A stretch of DNA of 64,000 bases from an uncultured Verrucomicrobiae bacterium (lineage in GTDB: Bacteria; Verrucomicrobiota; Verrucomicrobiia; Limisphaerales; Palsa-1400): NCBI GenBank assembly GCA_963764165.1, contig CAVXRD010000002.1, forward strand, positions 1,344,001 through 1,408,000. The letters run 5' to 3'. Under the pieces are notes generated by a model. That model saw only the letters and a list, made by a program, of their open reading frames with translations, had not been told where the DNA came from and ran no database searches. Both the position numbers and the translations under genes were made by a program. Shown here piece after piece: positions 38,388 through 57,384 of this stretch. The first letter of the stretch is position 1, and every line of letters begins with the position of its first letter.

Positions 38388-38551
38388 AAATCCAGCGCGC
38401 AACAAAAGATCGAGGTTCGGTAACGATCATCATATTGATTTTCCTGGCGTTGATGGCCGTCATCATTGTCAGCAATAATTTGGCCCTCGATCATCTCGAC
38501 AAGAATCTGCGCGCGATTGAGAAAAAACAACAGCGAGCCAAACTTAGGTAG
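38384..38551 (+). CDS. Short PilX/GspK-like pilin (55 aa)
   Basis: MKIQRATKDRG/SVTIIILIFLAL, no E5. ATGA-coupled to the upstream gene. Below the ORF-track length cutoff. Confidence 0.65.
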   Translation: MKIQRATKDRGSVTIIILIFLALMAVIIVSNNLALDHLDKNLRAIEKKQQRAKLR

Positions 38552-38601
38552 GGACGCCTCGCCGAGATTGTCTCAAAACTTCTGTTTTTTGAGGAATGTA
38601 T

Positions 38602-38631
38602 TTGACAATATGTGAGCCTTTAGTTGACAAT
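38602..38631 (+). promoter_or_regulatory. Putative transposase promoter
   Basis: TTGACAAT occurs twice (38602, 38624) just upstream of the transposase ATG. Confidence 0.4.
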
Positions 38632-38645
38632 GCCGTTCAACAAAT

Positions 38646-40106
38646 ATGGCTCAACCGATTGCCCCTGATTACGGACAGCAGTTCCTCCTCCCGCCCGCCC
38701 TGGAGGACTGGGTGTCCGCCGACCATCCCGCCCGCTTCCTGCGCGAATTTGTCGACCAGTTGGATCTGCCCCAGCTTGGGTTTGTCATTCCCGCCGCCGC
38801 CGAAGGCCGTCCGCCCTATGCCCCCAGCCTCCTGCTCAAGATTTGGCTTTACGGTTATTTCCACCGCATTCGCTCCACCCGCAAGCTGGAAACCGCCTGC
38901 ACGGAGCATGTCTTGCTGCTGTGGCTGACGGGGCTCAACGCCCCCGACCACAACAGCCTCTGGCGGTTCTGGGACGGAAACAAAAAGGCCCTGCGCCAGG
39001 TTTTCAAGCAAACCGTGCAGCTGGCCCTCCGCACCGGGGCGGTGGGATTTGCCTTGCAAGCGTTGGACGGCACCAAGATTCAAGCCGCCTGCAGCGGGCC
39101 GCAGGGCTGGAGCAAGGTTTACATGGAGAAGCTCCTGGCCCAGCTGGATGGCGCCTTGGAGGAAATCGAGCTCAAAGTCGTGGCGGAGAACCAGGATTCC
39201 AGCGCACCGGGCTGCCGGCTGCCCGCCGGGTTGGCCCAGCGCCAGGCCCTGCGCGAGGAAATCAAAAAAGGCCTGGCCCAGCTGCAGGCCGACGGGCGCC
39301 ACCATTACCATCCAGCCGAACCGGAGGCGCGCCGGATGAAAGTCGGCGACACCAACCGCTTTGCCTACAACGCCCAGGCGGTGGCCGACAGCCAGGAGGG
39401 CATCATGGTCGCCTGTCAAGCCACCCGCCAGGAAACCGACGCCGGCCAGCTGGTCCCCATGATTGAAGAAGCGAGGCAAAACCTCGGTCCGGCGGCCATT
39501 CCAACCCTCACCGCCGCCGACGCCGGCTATGGGGGCGGGGCCGACTTGAAAGCGGCCGTGGAACAGCAGATGAATGTGCTGGCCCCGCCGGCGGAGGGCA
39601 AGCCAGCCCACGACAACGCCTACGCGACGCAGCATTTTCATTATGACGAGGCGGCCCACACCGTCACCTGCCCGCAAGAGCGCCTTCTGGACCACGAAGG
39701 CCAGACCACCAAGAAAGGCCAGACCGTTGAGCGCTTCCGCTGCCATCACCGAGACTGTCCCGTGCGCGCCCTCTGCAGCCGCGATCCCAAAGGGCGGCAA
39801 GTCGAAGTGTGGCCGCACACCACGCTGGTGCAAGCCATGCGGGCCCGGCTGCAAGAGCCAGGACCCGCCGCGCTTTATGGAAAGCGCAAAGAGATCATCG
39901 AACGCCGGTTTGGGCAGCTCAAGCAACACGACGGCTTTCGGCGTTGGACAGTTTGGGGTCTGGAAGCCGTGCAAGCCCAATGGGCCTTGTTATGCGCCAC
40001 CTTGAACCTGCGAATCCTCTATAAAAAGTGGCAGGCCCGGGTCCAGACGCCGAAAATGGAAGTCAAAACCGCCGCGGTTGAAGGAAATTTGGCGATGGCG
40101 GCCTAA
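38646..40106 (+). CDS. IS1182-family DDE transposase
   Basis: DHPAR, GRPPY.P.LLLKIWLYGY..IRSTRKLE (DUF772-like), DGTKI, YNAQ, ADAGY and IERRFGQLK. Confidence 0.93.
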   Translation: MAQPIAPDYGQQFLLPPALEDWVSADHPARFLREFVDQLDLPQLGFVIPAAAEGRPPYAPSLLLKIWLYGYFHRIRSTRKLETACTEHVLLLWLTGLNAPDHNSLWRFWDGNKKALRQVFKQTVQLALRTGAVGFALQALDGTKIQAACSGPQGWSKVYMEKLLAQLDGALEEIELKVVAENQDSSAPGCRLPAGLAQRQALREEIKKGLAQLQADGRHHYHPAEPEARRMKVGDTNRFAYNAQAVADSQEGIMVACQATRQETDAGQLVPMIEEARQNLGPAAIPTLTAADAGYGGGADLKAAVEQQMNVLAPPAEGKPAHDNAYATQHFHYDEAAHTVTCPQERLLDHEGQTTKKGQTVERFRCHHRDCPVRALCSRDPKGRQVEVWPHTTLVQAMRARLQEPGPAALYGKRKEIIERRFGQLKQHDGFRRWTVWGLEAVQAQWALLCATLNLRILYKKWQARVQTPKMEVKTAAVEGNLAMAA

Positions 40107-40397
40107 AAAAGGAGGGAAAGGGAAGCTTGGCGTCATCGCTGACGCCAGCCACGCTCTGACAACTAAAAGTTGACACCCGTTTCCACAGCCCCTATTGGTG
40201 CCCATATAACCAGATCGGCCAGACTAAAACGTTTTGAGACAGTCTCCGCCGAGGCGTCCGGGGACTTTCGCGAGTCCGAACGCGTTCGAACGACAATACG
40301 CCCTCGGACGCCTCGGCGAGGCGTCCCTACCTTTAAGAGTGACTAAATTTCTGCTTGAAGGCTTGTTCCGCGCGGCGGAATACTCGCGTATCTAATT

Positions 40398-41558
40398 ATG
40401 AAATCGGTCCGGCTCGGCATCATCGGCATGGGAAATATCGGGACGCACCACGCCGGGTATTTGCTGGCGGGCAAGGTGAACCGCTGCGAACTGGCCGCGG
40501 TCTCCAATCGATCTCCTGAAAAACTGGCTTCTTTTCAAGAGCGCGGGCTGAAAATTTTTTCCGATGCCGAGGCGCTCATCCGTTTCGGTGACGTTGATGC
40601 CGTCATTATTGCCACCCCGCATTATCAACACACTTCGCTTGGCATCGCCGCGCTTGAAGCCGGGCTGCATGTGATGGTTGAGAAACCAATCTCCGCCCAT
40701 AAAGCGGATGCCGAACGGCTGATTGCGGCGCGGCGCGCGCATCCGAAACAAGTCTTTGCCGCGATGTTTCAAATGCGGACGGAGCCGCGTTATGCCCGGA
40801 TTAAAAACATGATTGACAGAGGCGAGCTTGGCCGGATCACGCGCTTTTCGTGGATCATCACCGAATGGTTCCGCACCGAAGCCTACTATGCGAGCGGCGG
40901 CTGGCGCGCGACATGGCGCGGCGAGGGCGGCGGCGTGCTCATCAATCAATGCCTCCACCAACTCGACACGCTGCAATGGCTGCTGGGAATGCCATCGCGC
41001 GTCCGCTCATTCGTTCAGTTGGGCCGCTTTCATAACATCGAGGTCGAGGACGATGTAACCTCTTATCTGGAATTTTCTGGCGGTGCGAACGGCATTTTTG
41101 TCTCCACAACCGGGGAAGCGCCCGGATCGAATCGATTGGAAATTATCGGCGAAATGGGAAAATTGCTTTTGGAAAACGACAAGCTCGTCTTTTATCGCAA
41201 CGAAGTTTCGATGATCGCGCAAAACAAAACATCGCCACTCGGCTTTCAAAAGCCGGCGGTGACGCTCGTTGAAATTCCCTTCACCAACGAACCCGCCCAG
41301 CACTCCACGCTCATGCAAAATTTTGTGGACGCGATTCTCGACGGCGCGCCGCTGATCGCGCCGGGTGAAGAAGGCATTCATTCCATCGAACTCGCCAACG
41401 TGATGTTGTATTCCGGACTGATAAACCAGACCGTTGAATTGCCTCTCGACGGCGCGGCCTACGAAAAGAAACTAAACGAGTTGATCGCCGCCTCGAAATT
41501 CGAGAAAAAAGTGGTAAAGGTTTCCAATGAGGATTTCACCAAGTCCTTCATGCGTTGA
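40398..41558 (+). CDS. Gfo/Idh/MocA oxidoreductase
   Basis: GIIGMGNIG, ATPH, HVMVEKP and GGGVLINQCLHQLD. Confidence 0.93.
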   Translation: MKSVRLGIIGMGNIGTHHAGYLLAGKVNRCELAAVSNRSPEKLASFQERGLKIFSDAEALIRFGDVDAVIIATPHYQHTSLGIAALEAGLHVMVEKPISAHKADAERLIAARRAHPKQVFAAMFQMRTEPRYARIKNMIDRGELGRITRFSWIITEWFRTEAYYASGGWRATWRGEGGGVLINQCLHQLDTLQWLLGMPSRVRSFVQLGRFHNIEVEDDVTSYLEFSGGANGIFVSTTGEAPGSNRLEIIGEMGKLLLENDKLVFYRNEVSMIAQNKTSPLGFQKPAVTLVEIPFTNEPAQHSTLMQNFVDAILDGAPLIAPGEEGIHSIELANVMLYSGLINQTVELPLDGAAYEKKLNELIAASKFEKKVVKVSNEDFTKSFMR

Positions 41559-41564
41559 TTTATT

Positions 41565-42446
41565 ATGATTCTCACCGGCATTGCGGATGAAGCGGGCGTC
41601 GCCCTCGACGCGCAGATTGCGGCCACGCGCGAACTCGGCTGGAAATATGTCGAGATGCGGGCAGTGGAAGTGCCGGGATTCGCCAAGGGAAATTTCCACG
41701 ACATTCCTGACAAGGCGTTTGATATCGCGGTCGGCAAGCTGGATGAGGCGGGCTTGAAGGTTTATTGCTTCGGCTCCGCCATCGCCAATTGGTCCAAGAA
41801 AATCTCCGATCCGTTCGACATTACCGTGGACGAAGTAAAACGCTGCATTCCCCGGATGCAACGTGTCGGCGCAAAGTTCGTCCGCATCATGAGCTACAAG
41901 CCGGGCGATGACGAAGCCACCACGCCTCCAGAGGTTTTTCGCAGAATCGCCGAAGTGACGCGCATGTTTTGCGATGCAGGGTTGCAGCCGGTGCATGAGA
42001 ATTGCATGAACTACGGCGGGATGAGCTGGCGGCACGGATTGGAATTGCTGGAAAAGTGCCCCGGCTTGAAGTGGGTATTTGACACGGGGAATCCGATGCT
42101 CAATCCCGACCGCAGCAAGCCCAAACCGTGGCCGAGGCAGGACGCGTGGGAATTCTGGGAGCATATTCGCGATCATGTCGCGCACATTCATGTGAAGGAT
42201 GCCACCTATGTTCCTTCGAAAAACGATTGCGATTATGAGTATCCCGGCCACGGCCAGGGAAGGGTGCGCGACATATTGGCCGACGCCTTTGCGCGCGGTT
42301 ACGACGCGGGCATTTCGATAGAGCCGCACGTCGCGGTGGTGTTTCACGACGCCTCGGTGAAAGCAAATCCAAAGGATGTATTTGACAGCTATATTCGGTA
42401 CGGCCGCGAGCTGGAAAAGATGATTGGCGAAATTAAGTCGGCGTAA
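41565..42446 (+). CDS. Sugar phosphate isomerase/epimerase (TIM barrel)
   Basis: GIADEA, HEN, FDTGN, HIHVKD and SIEPH. Confidence 0.88.
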   Translation: MILTGIADEAGVALDAQIAATRELGWKYVEMRAVEVPGFAKGNFHDIPDKAFDIAVGKLDEAGLKVYCFGSAIANWSKKISDPFDITVDEVKRCIPRMQRVGAKFVRIMSYKPGDDEATTPPEVFRRIAEVTRMFCDAGLQPVHENCMNYGGMSWRHGLELLEKCPGLKWVFDTGNPMLNPDRSKPKPWPRQDAWEFWEHIRDHVAHIHVKDATYVPSKNDCDYEYPGHGQGRVRDILADAFARGYDAGISIEPHVAVVFHDASVKANPKDVFDSYIRYGRELEKMIGEIKSA

Positions 42447-42482
42447 GTTTGGCCAGATCACTGCAGCCCGAGCCGCCGGAGA

Positions 42483-42697
42483 GCCAGAGGCGCGGCATCT
42501 TTATAGAAGTCAAACCCGAACCAAACTGTTAAGCCCCGTCAGGGGCGGCATAGACGGCAATGATTCATCGGCTGCCTAAGAGACGCATCGCGGATCGTCA
42601 ATCAGACTGAAGCTTTTGCCACACGCGGAAGATGCCGCTCATGACGGAGCTTGGATTATTTTTTTGGCCGTTTCTACAAAGATGCCGCGCCTCTGGC
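42483..42697. repeat. Nested inverted-repeat element (REP-like family E)
   Basis: 26-bp outer arms GCCAGAGGCGCGGCATCTTT(A/G)TAGAA with 1 mismatch, plus inner arms AAGC(C/T)CCGTCA..GCGGCAT. Confidence 0.75.
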
Positions 42698-42859
42698 GCT
42701 GAGCAGCTGCGGGAGCAACCTAAGTGCTTGTTTGTTTTATCCTGTTCATCCTGTCAAAATTTGGATAACTCTGATCGTCAATTACAAAGATGCGGCCATT
42801 TTATTCTGGCGCCAGCGCCTGAATGGCTGTTGTCTGGGTTGCACGAAAGGATACACACC

Positions 42860-44481
42860 ATGATGACCAGCAAATTTGCCCATCGAGCGATTGCCACGTT
42901 TTCAACCGCGTTGCTATTATTGGCCGGTTGCGACAAGAAAGAGGCGCCGGCCACCACGGCTCCCCCCCGCCGGCCGCCTCCAAACCGTCCGTAGTTTCCG
43001 CCGAGAAGAATAGCTTCAATGAGGTCACATCGAAGTTGGATGCGGGGGGCAGTTTCTACATGTATGTCAGCACCGAGCAGTTCATCGCCAATCTGAAGAC
43101 CGGCCTGGCGAGCGGCAGCAATATCATGGCTTCGCTGCCCACGATTCCCAGCGCGCAGCGTCCAATCATTGGAAGGGCATTTGGTGTCTTCGAGGGCATT
43201 CTTGATGAAAGCGGACTGGCCGATATTTCCGGGGTCGGCATGAGTTCCGTCGCGCGCGAGAAACATTTCTACTACAACAAGGTCGTCCTTCATCATTACA
43301 AGGGGCAGGGCAAAGGGCCGATATGGGCGCTCTTCGGCAAGGCCGCGCATCCTTTGGAAATCATCGATTATCTGCCAGCCGACACGGCCATCGCCGGAAG
43401 CTCGGATTTCGATGCGGCGCTGATGTGGTCCAATATCGTGAGCGTCACGGAGTCAATGGGTGTGCCAGACGTTTCGAAAGAGTTGGATAAAACTCCCGCG
43501 CAGTTCATGGAGCAAACTGGCTTGAATTGGGACGCCACCTTGAAATCTCTTGGCAACGAATATGGCGCCGTCCTGACGTTGGATGAGGCGAAGAAAGTGA
43601 CCCTGCCTTTGGGCAAGGATTCGGTCGAAATCCCCAGTCCCGCTTTGTGCCTGATTTTCAAGGTCAACTCCGACCTGATTTATGACCGCATCGTCATGGC
43701 GCTGGAGTCGAACGCGGTGGCTTCCAAGTTCGTCGTAAAAGCCGATGAGCCCGGCCTAAAGATGCGCACCGTCACGCTTCCCATTCCCTCGCCAGTCGAA
43801 GTTCGCCCCTCGGTGGCGCGGGTGGGAGATTACCTTCTCATCGCGAGCACGGATACTTTGATACGCAATATGGTCGCGGTCAAAAAAGGCGACAAAAAGG
43901 GATTCAAATCCACCGAGACGTTCAAGAAATTGTCGGAAGGCGTGCCGCTGGAAGGAAATAATTTTGCGCTCGTGACGGCCAAGCTTGGGCAGGCCTTCGC
44001 GCGCTTTGGGGAAAACGCGCTCGAATCGGCCCATGTGGATTCCGAATCGCTCAAGAACATTCACGACATGATGCAAACAAACTCCATTCCTGGCGCGTTC
44101 AGTGTCGGAGCCAACGGACCCGAGGGTTGGGTCGCGGTGGGCAACGGTGGCAGCGAAGGCGCCATGATGGTGCTGGTTCCGGCGTCATTCGTCACCGGAA
44201 CGCTGGCGGCGATTGCCATTCCGAATTTTGTGAAGGCGCGAACGACATCGCAACGGAATGCGTGCATTAATAATCTGCGGCTGATTGACGCGTCCAAAAA
44301 GGAATGGGCGCTGGAGAATAAAAAGCAGTCGACCGATGTTCCAACCGAGGCGGATGTGAAGCCGTTTATGGGACGCGGCGCCGCTGGCGAAATGCCGGTT
44401 TGCCCCCAAGGCGGGACCTATACCATTGGTTCTGTCGGCGAGAAGCCGCGTTGCAGCATTCCCGGCCATGAATTGCCTTGA
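42860..44481 (+). pseudogene. Lipoprotein with C-terminal pilin-like domain, frameshifted at a C7 tract
   Basis: Signal peptide and lipobox LLLAG/C in one frame, body in another. One extra C at 42962-42968 joins them. C-terminus LAAIAIPNFVKAR...CINNLRLID...CP.GG.Y. Confidence 0.75.
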
Positions 44482-44493
44482 GGACTTGATTCC

Positions 44494-44605
44494 GGGGAGC
44501 GCACGCGCCCTCGCGTGCAGTGGTTGGCGCCCTCGCCAACCACGTTCCGAAAGGGCAATCGGCGAGGGCGCCGATTGTCAGCACGCGAGGGCGCGTGCGC
44601 TCCCC
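44494..44605. repeat. Long GC-rich hairpin (REP-like family D) between convergent genes
   Basis: GGGGAGCGCACGCGCCCTCGCGTGC...GCACGCGAGGGCGCGTGCGCTCCCC with inner GGCGCCCTCGCC/GGCGAGGGCGCC. Confidence 0.8.
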
Positions 44606-44652
44606 AGGCAAATGGTCCAGATCAACACCGCCCGCGCCGCTTTCGGGTCGGC

Positions 44653-45216
44653 TTAATTCGTGAGCGGCGCGCCGACGTTGATATTGTTTTTCAGGCAGAA
44701 CGCGCCGTTGGCGACGTACTTCTCCGCCCAATACTTCAAGCCGCCGCGCTCTTCGGCTGTCAGCGACCGAACCACCTTCGCAGGAGAGCCGAGAACCATC
44801 GAGCCTGCTGGAATTTTCGAGTGCTGCGTCACCAGCGCTTTCGCCCCGATGATGCACTGCTCGCCAATTTCCGCCCCGTCCAAAACCACGGCGCCCATGC
44901 CAATCAGGCATTCGTTCCCGACGGTGCAGGCGTGGACAATGGCGGAATGCCCGACCGTAACGTAGTCCCCGAGAATGCACGGGAAATCATCCGCCAGATG
45001 CACGACGGCGTTGTCCTGCACGTTGCTGCCTTTGCCGATCACGATCTTGTTGATGTCGCCGCGAAGCACCGCATTATACCAAACACTCGCGCCATCTCCC
45101 AGGGTCACATCGCCGACCACCACCGCCCCCCGCGCAATATAGACGTGGTGGCCAATGGTGGGCGGCTGCTTGAGATAGGCATCCAGCCGTTGTTCGAGTG
45201 ATGCGAACTGCTTCAC
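44653..45216 (-). CDS. Gamma-carbonic anhydrase family protein
   Basis: VVVGDV, VWYNAVLRGD, NVQD..VH and VGH.A.VH hexapeptide repeats. Confidence 0.92.
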   Translation of the reverse strand: MKQFASLEQRLDAYLKQPPTIGHHVYIARGAVVVGDVTLGDGASVWYNAVLRGDINKIVIGKGSNVQDNAVVHLADDFPCILGDYVTVGHSAIVHACTVGNECLIGMGAVVLDGAEIGEQCIIGAKALVTQHSKIPAGSMVLGSPAKVVRSLTAEERGGLKYWAEKYVANGAFCLKNNINVGAPLTN

Positions 45217-46439
45217 GCGTGCGCCAGTTTTTCGGGCGGTTTAATGGCCGGCGGGCTGAAGAACAAAGCCAGCGCCAGCGTTGCCGCCAGCGAAATACCT
45301 GCTGAAATCAGGAACAAGCTTTGCCAATCCGCCGTGCCATCGGCGGCGGTAAAGTGCGTCTTGAGTTTCGGGCAAATCGTATTCGCGGCGATGACGCCCG
45401 CACCCAAAATCATAAAGTTGAACAAACCCTGGGCGCTCGAACGGATATCCTTGGGGAAAAACTCATCCACAAAAATGTAAACGGCGGCAAAGAAAAACGC
45501 GTAGCAGATGCCGTGCAAAACAAACACCAGCACGATCAGCCCCGTTGCTTTCGGAAACAGAGCAAACACCGTAAACCGGACGACATGTCCGAAGATGCCG
45601 AGCGTCATGGTCCATTTCCACCCAAGGCGCTTCAGAGTGGCCGCGAGTATGGCCATCGTCAGAACTTCCGCCACCTGCCCGATGCTCATAATGGGCATGA
45701 TCCATTCCTGGCTGATGCCGACTGCCGGGCTGCCGAGGAACATTCCCGCCCAGTTGAAATAGACATTCAGCACGAAAGCATCAATCAGGGTCACGACCCA
45801 CAACACGAACACGAAAGGCTGCTTGAGCAAACGGAGCGATTCCGCAAGCGCAAATTTGTCCGTGCCAGACGCGGCCTTCCTTGGCGGCGTGTGCGGAAGC
45901 GTCAGACTCAGCGCAGCCAGCGCCAGCGACGCAATCCCGGCAATCATAAACGTGGCCCGCGCGATATTTGGATCCTCGGGGTGCGCCTTGGCCACGAAAT
46001 AAAACGGCCACGCCGCGAGAATCCAGCCGATTGTGCCGCCCATGCGGATCAGCCCGAAATCCTTGGAGTCCTTCAGATTGGAAAACGCGATGGCGTTGAC
46101 GATGGAAAGCGTCGGCACGTAAAGAAGGCAGTGAATCGTCATCAGCGCGAAGAATATGGGAAAGCTCTTGGTGAAGAATAACCCGACCATCGCCAGCCCT
46201 CCGACGAATTGGCTGAAGGCGAGGAATTTTTCGGCGGCAAAATTGCGGTCGGCAAATTGGTTGCTGAAAAACATCGCGATCAGCGCAGAAACGGGGAATG
46301 CGTTCAAGATGAGAATGCATTGCATGTCCGTAAATCCAATCGAGGGGAGGTATCCGAATATCAGCGGCAGCCACGCTCCCCAGATGACATATTCCAGGAC
46401 CATCATGATGAAGAGACGCCAGCGAACGGTTGTATTCAT
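45213..46439 (-). CDS. MFS transporter, NupG-like nucleoside:H+ symporter family
   Basis: IWGAW, ADR.F.AEK, IRMGGTIGWI, GQVAE and R.SAQGL. Confidence 0.88.
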   Translation of the reverse strand: MNTTVRWRLFIMMVLEYVIWGAWLPLIFGYLPSIGFTDMQCILILNAFPVSALIAMFFSNQFADRNFAAEKFLAFSQFVGGLAMVGLFFTKSFPIFFALMTIHCLLYVPTLSIVNAIAFSNLKDSKDFGLIRMGGTIGWILAAWPFYFVAKAHPEDPNIARATFMIAGIASLALAALSLTLPHTPPRKAASGTDKFALAESLRLLKQPFVFVLWVVTLIDAFVLNVYFNWAGMFLGSPAVGISQEWIMPIMSIGQVAEVLTMAILAATLKRLGWKWTMTLGIFGHVVRFTVFALFPKATGLIVLVFVLHGICYAFFFAAVYIFVDEFFPKDIRSSAQGLFNFMILGAGVIAANTICPKLKTHFTAADGTADWQSLFLISAGISLAATLALALFFSPPAIKPPEKLAHA

Positions 46440-46587
46440 TGCAGCCAGCGTAGAAGTTTGCCCGCCGCGGTTCAAGGGGCAAAAATGCGTTTTCCAGAAC
46501 TTTTCCGAGGAAAGTTTAGTTTACAAACCACATTATTCCCATTCATCCGGGTGAGATCAAATGCGGGTGATGCGCGCAGATTATCAG

Positions 46588-46710
46588 GCGGGGCGTGGCT
46601 GTGTCGAAGACCAGCCGCAGCGCGTTGAACCGACACGCGCGCCTGTTAATCCCAGCGTGCTGCGGCTGGTTCTTTGTCGCTTCGCTCCGTCGAACACAGC
46701 CGCGCTCCGC
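46588..46710. repeat. REP-like family A inverted repeat (degenerate right arm)
   Basis: GGCTGTGTCGAAGACCAGCCGCAGC...GCTGCGGCTGGT..ACACAGCCGCGCTCCG. Confidence 0.75.
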
Positions 46711-46826
46711 CTAATTGTGCGTGCGCATCACCCAATTCCAATCGCACTCCATTCCCATTCCTCCCATCCCCAAACGATGTTGTCGCAATTCCGCGACCCT
46801 TGCGTTACCGTGGCGCCGTTATATTT

Positions 46827-47600
46827 ATGCTGGCCAAACGGGTAATCCCTTGTCTCGACGTCCACGATGGCAAAGTCACGCGCGGTGTGCAGTTCGGAAG
46901 AGCTGAGGCAGGCGAATTGCGCAGCGTGGGCGATCCTGTGGAACTGGCCATCCGCTACAACAACCAAGGCGCGGACGAAATGGTGTTCTTCGACATCACC
47001 GCCAGCGCCCACGGACGCGCCACCATGATTGGCGTCATCGAACGCGCGGCCGACGAATGCTTCATGCCGCTCACGGTCGGCGGCGGTTTGCGCACGGTCG
47101 ACGATCTCCACGCCATGCTCCGCGCCGGGGCCGACAAGACCAGCATCAACTCATCGGCACTCGCCACGCCCGAATTGATTCGCCAAGGCGCCGAAAAATT
47201 CGGCAGCCAATGCATCGTCGTCTCCATCGACGCCCGCAAAGTCGGCCGGGAAAAATGGGAAGTTTTCTCGCATGGCGGACGCAAACCCACCGGCCGCGAT
47301 GCCGTCGCTTGGGCCAGGGAAGCCGTCGCCTTGGGCGCGGGCGAAATCGTGCTCAACAGCATCGATGCAGACGGCACCAAGGCGGGCTTCGATTTGGAAA
47401 TCACCCGGCGCGTGAGTGAATCGGTCGGCGTTCCGGTCGTCGCCAGCGGCGGGGCGGGAACCTTGCAACACATAGCCGACGTTCTCTTGGCGGGAAAAGC
47501 TGACGCTGTGCTGGCGGCCAGCATTTTCCATTTCGGCGAATACACCGTTGGCGACGTGAAAGATTTCCTGGCCGCGCAGAACATTCCCGTCCGAAGGTAG
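46827..47600 (+). CDS. hisF: Imidazole glycerol phosphate synthase subunit HisF
   Basis: [36 protein letters not shown] and LAASIFH. Confidence 0.96.
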
Positions 47601-47612
47601 GGACGCCTCGCC

Positions 47613-47750
47613 GAGATTGTCTCAAAACTACAAAATCCTCAAAGTGTGTCAATACTACCAATCTCTCATTTTCGATATGGCGCATTTTTATTTTCGGTGA
47701 GGGTGTTTTGGTGGTGCTTTTTAAAGCCGTTTTTGAGTTTTGACAGACTC
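47613..47750 (+). mobile_element. 138-bp MITE sharing the IS1182 terminal IR
   Basis: Starts with GAGATTGTCTCAAAACT (identical to the IS left end) and ends with AGTTTTGACAGACTC. CGCC on both sides. No transposase ORF. Confidence 0.85.
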
Positions 47751-47805
47751 CGCCGAGGCGTCCGGGGTGAGGCGTGGTCCACGCACAAGGGCGGACGTCT
47801 CGGCG

Positions 47806-49488
47806 GAGACTGTCTCAAAACGTTTTAGTCTGGCCGATCTGGTTATATGGGCACCAATAGGGGCTGTGGAAACGGGTGTCAACTTTTAGTTGTCAGAGCG
47901 TGGCTGGCGTCAGCGATGACGCCAAGCTTCCCTTTCCCTCCTTTTTTAGGCCGCCATCGCCAAATTTCCTTCAACCGCGGCGGTTTTGACTTCCATTTTC
48001 GGCGTCTGGACCCGGGCCTGCCACTTTTTATAGAGGATTCGCAGGTTCAAGGTGGCGCATAACAAGGCCCATTGGGCTTGCACGGCTTCCAGACCCCAAA
48101 CTGTCCAACGCCGAAAGCCGTCGTGTTGCTTGAGCTGCCCAAACCGGCGTTCGATGATCTCTTTGCGCTTTCCATAAAGCGCGGCGGGTCCTGGCTCTTG
48201 CAGCCGGGCCCGCATGGCTTGCACCAGCGTGGTGTGCGGCCACACTTCGACTTGCCGCCCTTTGGGATCGCGGCTGCAGAGGGCGCGCACGGGACAGTCT
48301 CGGTGATGGCAGCGGAAGCGCTCAACGGTCTGGCCTTTCTTGGTGGTCTGGCCTTCGTGGTCCAGAAGGCGCTCTTGCGGGCAGGTGACGGTGTGGGCCG
48401 CCTCGTCATAATGAAAATGCTGCGTCGCGTAGGCGTTGTCGTGGGCTGGCTTGCCCTCCGCCGGCGGGGCCAGCACATTCATCTGCTGTTCCACGGCCGC
48501 TTTCAAGTCGGCCCCGCCCCCATAGCCGGCGTCGGCGGCGGTGAGGGTTGGAATGGCCGCCGGACCGAGGTTTTGCCTCGCTTCTTCAATCATGGGGACC
48601 AGCTGGCCGGCGTCGGTTTCCTGGCGGGTGGCTTGACAGGCGACCATGATGCCCTCCTGGCTGTCGGCCACCGCCTGGGCGTTGTAGGCAAAGCGGTTGG
48701 TGTCGCCGACTTTCATCCGGCGCGCCTCCGGTTCGGCTGGATGGTAATGGTGGCGCCCGTCGGCCTGCAGCTGGGCCAGGCCTTTTTTGATTTCCTCGCG
48801 CAGGGCCTGGCGCTGGGCCAACCCGGCGGGCAGCCGGCAGCCCGGTGCGCTGGAATCCTGGTTCTCCGCCACGACTTTGAGCTCGATTTCCTCCAAGGCG
48901 CCATCCAGCTGGGCCAGGAGCTTCTCCATGTAAACCTTGCTCCAGCCCTGCGGCCCGCTGCAGGCGGCTTGAATCTTGGTGCCGTCCAACGCTTGCAAGG
49001 CAAATCCCACCGCCCCGGTGCGGAGGGCCAGCTGCACGGTTTGCTTGAAAACCTGGCGCAGGGCCTTTTTGTTTCCGTCCCAGAACCGCCAGAGGCTGTT
49101 GTGGTCGGGGGCGTTGAGCCCCGTCAGCCACAGCAGCGAGACATGCTCCGTGCAGGCGGTTTCCAGCTTGCGGGTGGAGCGAATGCGGTGGAAATAACCG
49201 TAAAGCCAAATCTTGAGCAGGAGGCTGGGGGCATAGGGCGGACGGCCTTCGGCGGCGGCGGGAATGACAAACCCAAGCTGGGGCAGATCCAACTGGTCGA
49301 CAAATTCGCGCAGGAAGCGGGCGGGATGGTCGGCGGACACCCAGTCCTCCAGGGCGGGCGGGAGGAGGAACTGCTGTCCGTAATCAGGGGCAATCGGTTG
49401 AGCCATATTTGTTGAACGGCATTGTCAACTAAAGGCTCACATATTGTCAAATACATTCCTCAAAAAACAGAAGTTTTGAGACAATCTC
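47806..49488 (-). mobile_element. IS1182-family insertion sequence, copy 2 (1683 bp)
   Basis: Reverse complement of copy 1. GGCG duplicated at 47802-47805 and 49489-49492. Confidence 0.92.
47946..49406 (-). CDS. IS1182-family DDE transposase
   Basis: 486 aa, same as 38646-40106 except one L/S change (HVLLL vs HVSLL). Confidence 0.93.
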   Translation of the reverse strand: MAQPIAPDYGQQFLLPPALEDWVSADHPARFLREFVDQLDLPQLGFVIPAAAEGRPPYAPSLLLKIWLYGYFHRIRSTRKLETACTEHVSLLWLTGLNAPDHNSLWRFWDGNKKALRQVFKQTVQLALRTGAVGFALQALDGTKIQAACSGPQGWSKVYMEKLLAQLDGALEEIELKVVAENQDSSAPGCRLPAGLAQRQALREEIKKGLAQLQADGRHHYHPAEPEARRMKVGDTNRFAYNAQAVADSQEGIMVACQATRQETDAGQLVPMIEEARQNLGPAAIPTLTAADAGYGGGADLKAAVEQQMNVLAPPAEGKPAHDNAYATQHFHYDEAAHTVTCPQERLLDHEGQTTKKGQTVERFRCHHRDCPVRALCSRDPKGRQVEVWPHTTLVQAMRARLQEPGPAALYGKRKEIIERRFGQLKQHDGFRRWTVWGLEAVQAQWALLCATLNLRILYKKWQARVQTPKMEVKTAAVEGNLAMAA

Positions 49489-49580
49489 GGCGAGACGTCC
49501 CTACCTTAAAACAGGCCGCAAAATCGTTGCCAAGTGGGTTGCCACCGCCTTAGGATGCATGCGACTCGTTGATCGCTCTC

Positions 49581-50369
49581 ATGGCGGAATATAAAGTCCA
49601 ATTTGAAGTTTTCGAGGGCCCGCTTGATTTGCTCCTTTACCTCATTAAAAAGGAGGAAGTCGATATTTATGAGGTCAACCTGACCCAACTGGCCACCCGC
49701 TTCATCGAACACGTCGAGGTCATGCGGATGCTGGATTTGGACATCGCCGGCGAATTTTTGGTGATGGCCTCGACGCTGATGTATATCAAGAGCCGCGAGC
49801 TTCTGCCCAAGGAGCAGCAGGTCCAGGCCACCGACGAGGAGGAAGGCGAAGATCCGCGCTGGGAATTGATCCGCCAACTTGTCGAATACAAAAAGTTCAA
49901 GGACGCCGCCTCCCAATTGCAAGTGCGCGAACTCGCCCAGGAAAACACCTTTCCCCGCGTGCCCGTCCGCATGGAAATGCCGCCCGCGCTGGCCCAGCGC
50001 CGCGGCGAAGCTTCGATTTTCGACCTCGTCAATGCCGTCAGCGAAATCCTCAAGCGCGTCAGCAAGCGGGATGACATGCGGGAAATTTACGAGGATAAAT
50101 TTTCCGTCAGCGAGAAAATCGAGCATCTGCTCAAGTCGATTTCCGAAAAAGGCTCGCTGAAATTTTCGGAATTATTTGCCGGAGCCGCCAGCCGGCCGGA
50201 AGTGATTTGCACTTTTCTGGCCTTGCTGGAATTGATCCGGCTCAAGCAATTGGTTTGCCTGCAATCGGCGGATTTCGACGAAATTGAAATTGCCCGCGCG
50301 CCCGCCCCTGCGCCGCCGTCCGCCGAGCCTCCGCCTCCAGCCACGCCCGGCGAAACGAATTTACCCTGA
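49581..50369 (+). CDS. scpA: Segregation and condensation protein A
   Basis: FEGPLDLLLYLI, GEFLVMASTL.YIKSRELLP and TFLALLEL. Confidence 0.95.
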   Translation: MAEYKVQFEVFEGPLDLLLYLIKKEEVDIYEVNLTQLATRFIEHVEVMRMLDLDIAGEFLVMASTLMYIKSRELLPKEQQVQATDEEEGEDPRWELIRQLVEYKKFKDAASQLQVRELAQENTFPRVPVRMEMPPALAQRRGEASIFDLVNAVSEILKRVSKRDDMREIYEDKFSVSEKIEHLLKSISEKGSLKFSELFAGAASRPEVICTFLALLELIRLKQLVCLQSADFDEIEIARAPAPAPPSAEPPPPATPGETNLP

Positions 50370-55700: not shown

Positions 55701-55803
55701 AGGTAGGGACGCCTCGCCGAGGCGTCCGGGGTGAGGCTTTATTCACGCGCTACCCTTGGCATGCCCACCCGCAACCGGGCGCCTCGGCGAGGCGTCCCTG
55801 CCT
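55701..55803. repeat. Intact (empty) family B REP doublet
   Basis: AGGTAGGGACGCCTCGCCGAGGCGTCCG...GGCGCCTCGGCGAGGCGTCCCTGCCT. Confidence 0.85.
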
Positions 55804-57283: not shown

Positions 57284-57384
57284 AGGTAGCGCCTCGCCGA
57301 GGCGTCCGGGGTGAGGCGTTATTCCTGCATCGCCCTTTCGCATGTTCACGCGCAACCGGACGCCTCGGCGAGGCGTCCCTACCT
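57284..57384. repeat. Family B REP doublet (left arm slightly deleted), empty
   Basis: AGGTAG-CGCCTCGCCGAGGCGTCCG...CGGACGCCTCGGCGAGGCGTCCCTACCT. Confidence 0.85.

Follow-up and report, generated by a model that had tools for sequence, protein, structure and literature searches.

An IS1182-family insertion sequence and a miniature element share a preferred landing position in tagged REP hairpins of a Verrucomicrobiae genome

Three insertions interrupt GTAG-tagged hairpins in one window

We analysed a 64,000-nucleotide stretch (the window) from the genome of an uncultured Verrucomicrobiae bacterium (contig CAVXRD010000002.1, positions 1,344,001 to 1,408,000). [quoted passage not shown] A sequence-only reading of the window had described these three insertions, each with a duplicated CGCC, and both the insertions and the duplications proved real.

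IS copy 1 (38564..40246, plus strand) is 1683 bp long, has 16-bp terminal inverted repeats and contains a transposase open reading frame (ORF; 38646..40106, plus strand, 486 aa). IS copy 2 (47806..49488, minus strand; ORF 47946-49406) is also 1683 bp long and one base apart from copy 1 in sequence. The MITE (47613..47750, plus strand) is 138 bp long and shares just its 16-17 bp ends with the IS, which bears out the earlier pairing of the two. It is 2 bp short in its right inverted repeat; other MITE copies are 140 bp.

The GTAG-side half of the REP broken by IS copy 1, comprising the tag, left stem arm and first CGCC, lies at 38548..38563 (plus strand), and the second CGCC with the right stem arm lies at 40247..40259 (plus strand). 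The other arm of this inverted doublet, or REPIN (REP doublet forming hairpins), is an empty GTAG REP at 40306..40330 (minus strand; also delimited as 40305-40330). A second doublet is occupied in both arms, one by the MITE and the other by IS copy 2. Its GTAG-side halves are found at 47597..47612 (plus strand, MITE) and 49489..49504 (minus strand, IS copy 2), while the spacer and the inner halves of both broken arms span 47751..47805 (plus strand). The REP at IS copy 2 has a compensating change present in both stem arms. Two further doublets are empty: one at 55703..55801, with a GTAG arm at 55703 (plus strand) and a GCAG arm at 55801 (minus strand), and one at 57284..57382, with a decayed arm near 57284 and an intact GTAG arm at 57382 (minus strand). 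The three empty hairpins listed earlier (40305-40330, 55703 and about 57284) are thus present, but the last is the decayed copy.

The IS encodes an IS1182-family transposase and probably mobilises the MITE

Residues 10-459 of the transposase match the IS1182 family model NF033551 at 344 bits (cut-off 270), and the protein includes the Pfam domains DUF772 and DDE_Tnp_1_6. The element also has the IS1182 layout of one 486-aa ORF between 16-bp terminal inverted repeats, and the family assignment made from the sequence stands. D141, D292 and E419 are invariant in an alignment of 51 rows, as are R414, K426, C342, C371 and C377. Conservation marks D141, D292 and E419 as the putative catalytic triad, and a cysteine-rich segment between D292 and E419 (about residues 330-390) is a candidate target reader. 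The predicted structure (predicted local distance difference test score 86) is closest to Tn5 (E 1.7e-6, template modelling score 0.39) and next to piggyBat, suggesting a Tn5-like fold. No solved structure matching the transposase by sequence was found.

The genome contains 22 MITEs of 138-140 bp, which are non-coding, have IS-like ends, are flanked by target duplications and have an inner sequence without a match to the IS. Since both their ends and their target rule are common to the IS, they are likely mobilised in trans by its transposase. Because the shared sequence is limited to the 16-17 bp ends, inner cis sequence is not needed for targeting. A MITE 77% identical to that of the window occurs in another genome (L026:991-1139). 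A GTAG lies 16 nt away from it, and a related IS has its left end at a distance of only 10 bp.

Insertions across the genome keep one register but not one orientation

We identified 49 copies in the 7.0-Mb assembly, comprising 27 IS (26 full copies and one at the start of contig C3) and the 22 MITEs. Every one of the 49 sits at the tip of a REP hairpin, far more than expected by chance. The sequence-only reading had named two patterns that would speak against it, most copies lying outside REPs, or copies at variable positions and orientations; the first is not seen here, and of the second the variable orientation is.

In 46 of the 49 copies (45 GTAG, one GCAG), 16 nt separate the tag's first G from the junction. 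Of the remaining three, one keeps this register at a CAAG tag, one has a 5-bp duplication at 17 and one is an older MITE with its junction at 14. Such a register in any such hairpin has a chance of about 1.4e-4 per random insertion. The proposed single-register targeting of GTAG REPs therefore describes most copies, and relatives too (below), with three off the rule. A left end facing the tag is seen in all three window insertions, but the claim that this is always so does not extend to the genome, where 31 copies have their left end toward the tag and 18 their right end (IS 16:11, MITE 15:7; p=0.085 against 1:1). The system thus lacks the fixed orientation of an oriented site-specific element. 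The integration tool envisaged earlier would accordingly be a multi-site one, with hundreds of targets in this genome and insertion in either orientation.

In three REP classes, duplications occupy positions 13-16, counting from the tag's first G. Both flanks are available for 48 copies, of which 37 show a perfect duplication of 4 bp, one has a 5-bp duplication, nine mismatch at the base adjoining the element and one joins halves of two REP classes. The duplicated 4-mer is mostly CGCC, as in the window, but CGGC, TGCG, TGTG, TGCC and CACC also occur. Four insertions lie entirely in REP classes with other stems and duplicate TGCG, TGTG or TGCC at the same positions. The CGCC loop was rejected as the determinant of the site, given these five other 4-mers and the 26 different last 4-mers found at 69 relatives' ends.

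IS copies are 0-2 bases from their consensus and therefore recent; their haplotypes are too uniform for tracing donors. One IS copy (C2:2992594-2994276) is flanked by halves of two different REP classes, which suggests an adjacent deletion or recombination. A decayed 5' fragment (C1:1276500-1276790), 80% identical to the IS and 16 nt from a GCAG tag, is a remnant of an older wave of insertion.

Both the tag and the hairpin matter for the site

Occupied and empty REPs of the main class differ in their tags. Forty of 41 occupied REPs carry GTAG, one carries CAAG and none GCAG, whereas the 432 empty REPs comprise 237 GTAG, 116 GCAG and 79 others (p=5e-7). The bias persists when only perfect cores are counted (occupied: 31 GTAG, 1 CAAG and 0 GCAG, n=32; empty: 182 GTAG and 56 GCAG, n=275; p=7e-4). 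In doublets that combine a GTAG and a GCAG arm, insertion is on the GTAG arm in four of four cases. The centre of the main hairpin is of odd length, and for either direction of the element the register is on the side of the tag.

We counted 958 GTAGGG sites that lack a hairpin, among them the interrupted targets, and none of the 49 copies is inserted at a tag lacking a hairpin. Tag and hairpin thus both matter for the site, and the loop sequence does not.

We also considered guidance by RNA, as in IS of the IS110/IS1111 type (IS1111 belongs to the IS110 family). The non-coding ends of 40 relatives show no excess of matches to their own targets (mean longest match 6.0, against 6.2 when permuted), and the transposase is of the DDE type. 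No Rfam family came near its cut-off in 38400-49600.

Relatives of the element follow the same rule

Alignment searches for relatives covered the best 80 of 425 and the best 80 of 579 matches. Relatives with at least 60% identity come, where titles are given, mostly from Verrucomicrobiota. Within 30 nt of their 159 distinct ends there are 83 GTAG words, located at 16 nt in 69 cases, at 17 in 12 and elsewhere in two. The 69 comprise 42 left and 27 right ends and are associated with 42 different stem 8-mers. Relatives at 63-88% identity keep this 16- or 17-nt rule. Strong conservation in these targets is confined to the tag and the next two bases, and GCAG is found at 16 once. At 30-60% identity, 18 of 24 GTAG words near 112 ends are at 16. 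Rebuilding 29 targets of relatives from clean duplications placed the first cut at 12 in 26 and gave a hairpin fold in 28.

A quick tree of 71 rows places the window protein in a fully supported 21-row clade, 20 of whose rows are labelled GTAG; the close rows were hand-picked, so that the tree speaks for clustering only, and GTAG labels are also scattered on distant branches. Several distant branches (L294-L301, L305/L313/L324 and L021-L025) insert in other repeats (C-rich, GGAGTG-type and GGTCAA-type), which suggests retargeting within the lineage. One distant relative is multi-copy in a single genome and has many mismatched flank pairs (L268, L271, L275-L283, L292), pointing to rearrangement between copies. 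Pattern scans made without a protein filter are noisy: one found GTAG at 16 in eight of 121 ends and at 17 in four of 121, and a further one yielded 123 distances, with 25 at 16, 15 at 15, 11 at 17 and 2-9 at each of the others.

The target REP appears to belong to a RAYT/REPIN system

The target repeat has a tag and a short stem-loop, occurs in hundreds of copies and forms inverted doublets (244 of 472 tagged REP heads are in inverted pairs less than 200 bp apart), as expected of a REP and REPIN. We identified two genes for REP-associated tyrosine transposases (RAYTs), at C2:2170035-2170409 and C4:582634-583008. Both score above the NF047646 cut-off, and both have an open frame, an HUH motif and inverted REPs on each side. 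A second genome (G205) has the REP in 101 exact copies but yields no match to the transposase at E 1e-40, an absence that is not proven in an assembly 95% complete in 130 contigs. An origin of the REP as a relic of IS ends was rejected on this observation. Because the RAYT genes are bracketed by the REP and G205 has the REP without a transposase match, the REP is assigned to a RAYT/REPIN system, with the IS and MITE as its invaders. The IS and MITE tiers of the three-tier system proposed earlier are retained, but its REP, taken there as simply a host element, is associated with intact RAYT genes, giving four tiers.

In Stenotrophomonas maltophilia, the REP has nearly the same build, with a perfect 8-bp stem and a 3-nt loop (PMC3479197, PMC8266576, PMC3733652). 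The target described here resembles such GTAG REPs, for which the RAYT (TnpA-REP) needs both tag and hairpin (PMC3479197). RAYTs are HUH single-strand nucleases that act on the REP belonging to them, whereas in the present case the REP serves as landing site for a DDE enzyme unrelated to RAYTs. The two RAYTs may bind or cleave the present REP. Another GTAG REP family, which has a long loop and flanks Y1 transposase genes of its own (L004, L005, L006), has no occupied and 29 empty GTAG copies. A RAYT-like gene associated with a third REP was also found (L031).

The transposase probably reads the tag and the hairpin itself

We consider it probable that the transposase itself recognises the GTAG(G) tag together with the short stem-loop, acting as a symmetric transpososome. 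In such a mechanism, a two-fold symmetric transpososome would dock on the tag, the 8-9 bp stem serving as a spacer, and the transposase would cut the two strands 4 nt apart across the hairpin tip. The two-fold symmetry would account for insertion in both orientations. The same transposase would move the MITE in trans, and the element would gain hundreds of mostly harmless intergenic sites kept up by the RAYT system.

Several observations weigh against this reading. In the genome, one young IS is inserted at a GCAG REP of another class, the 80%-identical relic also lies at GCAG, and one MITE lies at CAAG and an older one at distance 14. A distant relative (L271-L283) also uses GCAG and ATAG sites. 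Clean 4-5 bp duplications occur in just 24 of the 69 distinct close relatives with both flanks, probably owing to collapsed short-read assemblies that mix flanks. In 25 of the 28 folded targets the centres of duplication and loop are no more than half a base apart, so that tag distance and loop position are largely confounded. In L209, with a bulged arm, and L287, with a 9-bp stem, the cut shifts with the loop to 13/17. Finally, a RAYT also prefers GTAG over GCAG in vitro (PMC8266576), and the GTAG bias therefore does not single out the IS protein.

This last point is relevant to the possibility that another REP-bound protein, either the cognate RAYT or a host protein, reads the tag and recruits the transposase, with the DDE enzyme just cutting. 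The REP flanks two intact RAYT genes, RAYTs require tag and hairpin (PMC3479197), and one RAYT barely cleaves a GCAG substrate, paralleling the insertion bias (PMC8266576). However, a single IS enters three REP classes with different stems, the long-loop GTAG REP with its own Y1 transposases is spared, the rule is kept across many hosts and the specificity of the REP-targeting elements IS1397 and ISKpn1 is reported as set by their transposases (PMC1525189). We regard recruitment as unlikely. The more specific proposal that a RAYT bound on the REP is the targeting subunit of the DDE transposase, such that the IS1182 lineage parasitises the REP-RAYT system at the protein level, seems rather unlikely to us. 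We favour the version in which two unrelated folds, DDE and HUH, would have converged on one tag-plus-hairpin code.

Alternatively, shape alone could be read, as described for IS1272; the cut would then cross the loop of a stem of 8-9 bp, and the tag would be a passenger of the REP family. IS1272 targets hairpins without a primary consensus (PMC4923244), and in most rebuilt targets the duplication falls on the loop, moving with it in L209 and L287. These two loci speak for the loop, and L015, L255 and L248 for distance; L015 and L255 have little or no hairpin and are cut at 12/16. Identical GCAG-tagged hairpins without insertions, a register set by the tag side and the lack of any copy in an unrelated hairpin also argue against reading by shape, which we hold to be rather improbable.

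It is far less likely that the copies derive from few insertions, multiplied as cargo when RAYTs duplicated REP doublets. The tag bias would then reflect doublet mobility and need no recognition by the IS, and two copies (C2:220784 and C2:419968) do match each other over about 80 bp of flanking sequence to either side. These two nevertheless differ in IS haplotype and junction base, and the collection as a whole has inserts facing either way, of two element types, in three REP classes and beside many different spacers, with MITE haplotypes found in both orientations. Broad insertion followed by selection sparing only copies in intergenic, probably neutral REPs is the most remote explanation, since it can neither produce a single register in 46 of 49 copies nor tell GTAG hairpins from GCAG ones, and the IS copies are recent.

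The targeting rule extends known cases of REP and hairpin targeting

Fixed-position REP targeting by DDE elements and hairpin targeting by the IS1182 family are already known; the targeting rule is new here. In Pseudomonas syringae DC3000, all five copies of the IS3-family element ISPsy8 break the REP at one position on the hairpin axis, and that paper already proposes use as a tool (PMC1525189). ISPsy8 resembles the present element in its DDE transposase, its short duplication and its two relative orientations, and differs in its family, its 3-bp duplication and its single REP type; the available text describes no tag-based rule, MITE or clade-wide survey (PMC1525189). The IS3-family elements IS1397 and ISKpn1 likewise target REPs, in enterobacteria, with targeting demonstrated experimentally and specificity set by the transposase (PMC1525189). 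Each is bound to its own REP type, whereas the lineage described here tolerates many stems behind one tag. Insertion of these two elements is reported to fall in the loop. An IS481-family element of Pseudomonas fluorescens SBW25 is also of the DDE type and makes 4-bp duplications at one REP position, in some cases within REPINs (10.1101/2024.06.02.596822, PMC11708052). It differs in family and has five copies, and the accessible portions give no recognition rule.

Within the IS1182 family, staphylococcal IS1272/TnSha1 likewise targets hairpins, with both orientations at one target (PMC4923244, PMC5678879). IS1272 cuts in the stem and partially deletes its target, without duplication or sequence consensus, and the paper cites a review in which some IS1182 members target palindromes (PMC4923244). 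The element described here instead makes a 4-bp duplication at the hairpin tip and depends on the tag; its perfect duplications (37/48), intact hairpin halves and tag consensus set it apart from stem-replacing insertion of the IS1272 type. According to the same review, some members of the family are said to duplicate the loop. An IS, a MITE and a GTAG REP are also nested in one genome where IS1111 lies in the GTAG REP of QMITE2, but there the MITE carries the target (PMC5896051). Here the MITE is a second invader of the target.

Among the literature matches listed we found no account of an IS1182 lineage targeting GTAG REPs; ISfinder notes, subscription reviews and supplements fell outside this coverage and may hold one. 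How protein-only DDE transposases choose REP hairpins is a long-standing and little-resolved question. The present rule is simple: a tag is followed by a stem of 8-9 bp with nearly any sequence, and the cut spans 4 nt across the tip. A single enzyme is enough to test it. Identical hairpins tagged GTAG or GCAG supply an internal control, and the 140-bp donor needs only 16-bp ends. It also links the spread of an IS1182 element to REP populations maintained by RAYTs, and the sister lineages that apparently moved to other repeats could help to map the domain that reads the target. As a tool, the system would provide a landing pad of about 25 bp without control of orientation.

Junction mismatches and further observations

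The tag-side base adjoining the element differs from its twin in nine of 48 copies (A five times, G four times; one of the nine is the hybrid two-class site), compared with one far-side mismatch in 48. The bias between the two sides is thus 9:1 (p=0.02). Pre-existing variation was rejected as a source, as positions 13-16 of empty tagged REPs read CGCA in 0 of 353 and CGCG in 3 of 353. In close relatives, nine of ten duplications with a single mismatch also differ at the element-adjoining base, a pattern that assembly chimeras can mimic. Because all ten substituted bases are bases adjoining the ends of other copies, the mismatches fit a carry-over in which 1-3 donor-flank bases on the transposon ends are sometimes ligated in. 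We advance this tentatively, as a possibility somewhat short of even. A similar donor-base effect has reportedly been seen with piggyBac; our literature search found no such precedent.

GTAG strands show no clear replication-strand bias (29:19 in occupied and 120:118 in empty targets, with a weak skew). The IS lean to the G-rich strand in 21 of 26 copies by crude skew and in 19 of 26 by codon-position skew, and MITEs divide 11:11; a link of the IS lean to replication is, with so weak a skew, only a lead.

The terminal triplets of the IS, GAG...CTC (38561-38566, 40244-40250), are identical to the bases of the stem next to the loop in the main REP, which they close. IS junctions with the main REP thus partly re-form the top of the hairpin. 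The match is possibly due to chance, as it does not hold for other REP classes. At the MITE-interrupted REP, the stop codon of the upstream ORF (46674-47600) is the TAG of the tag.

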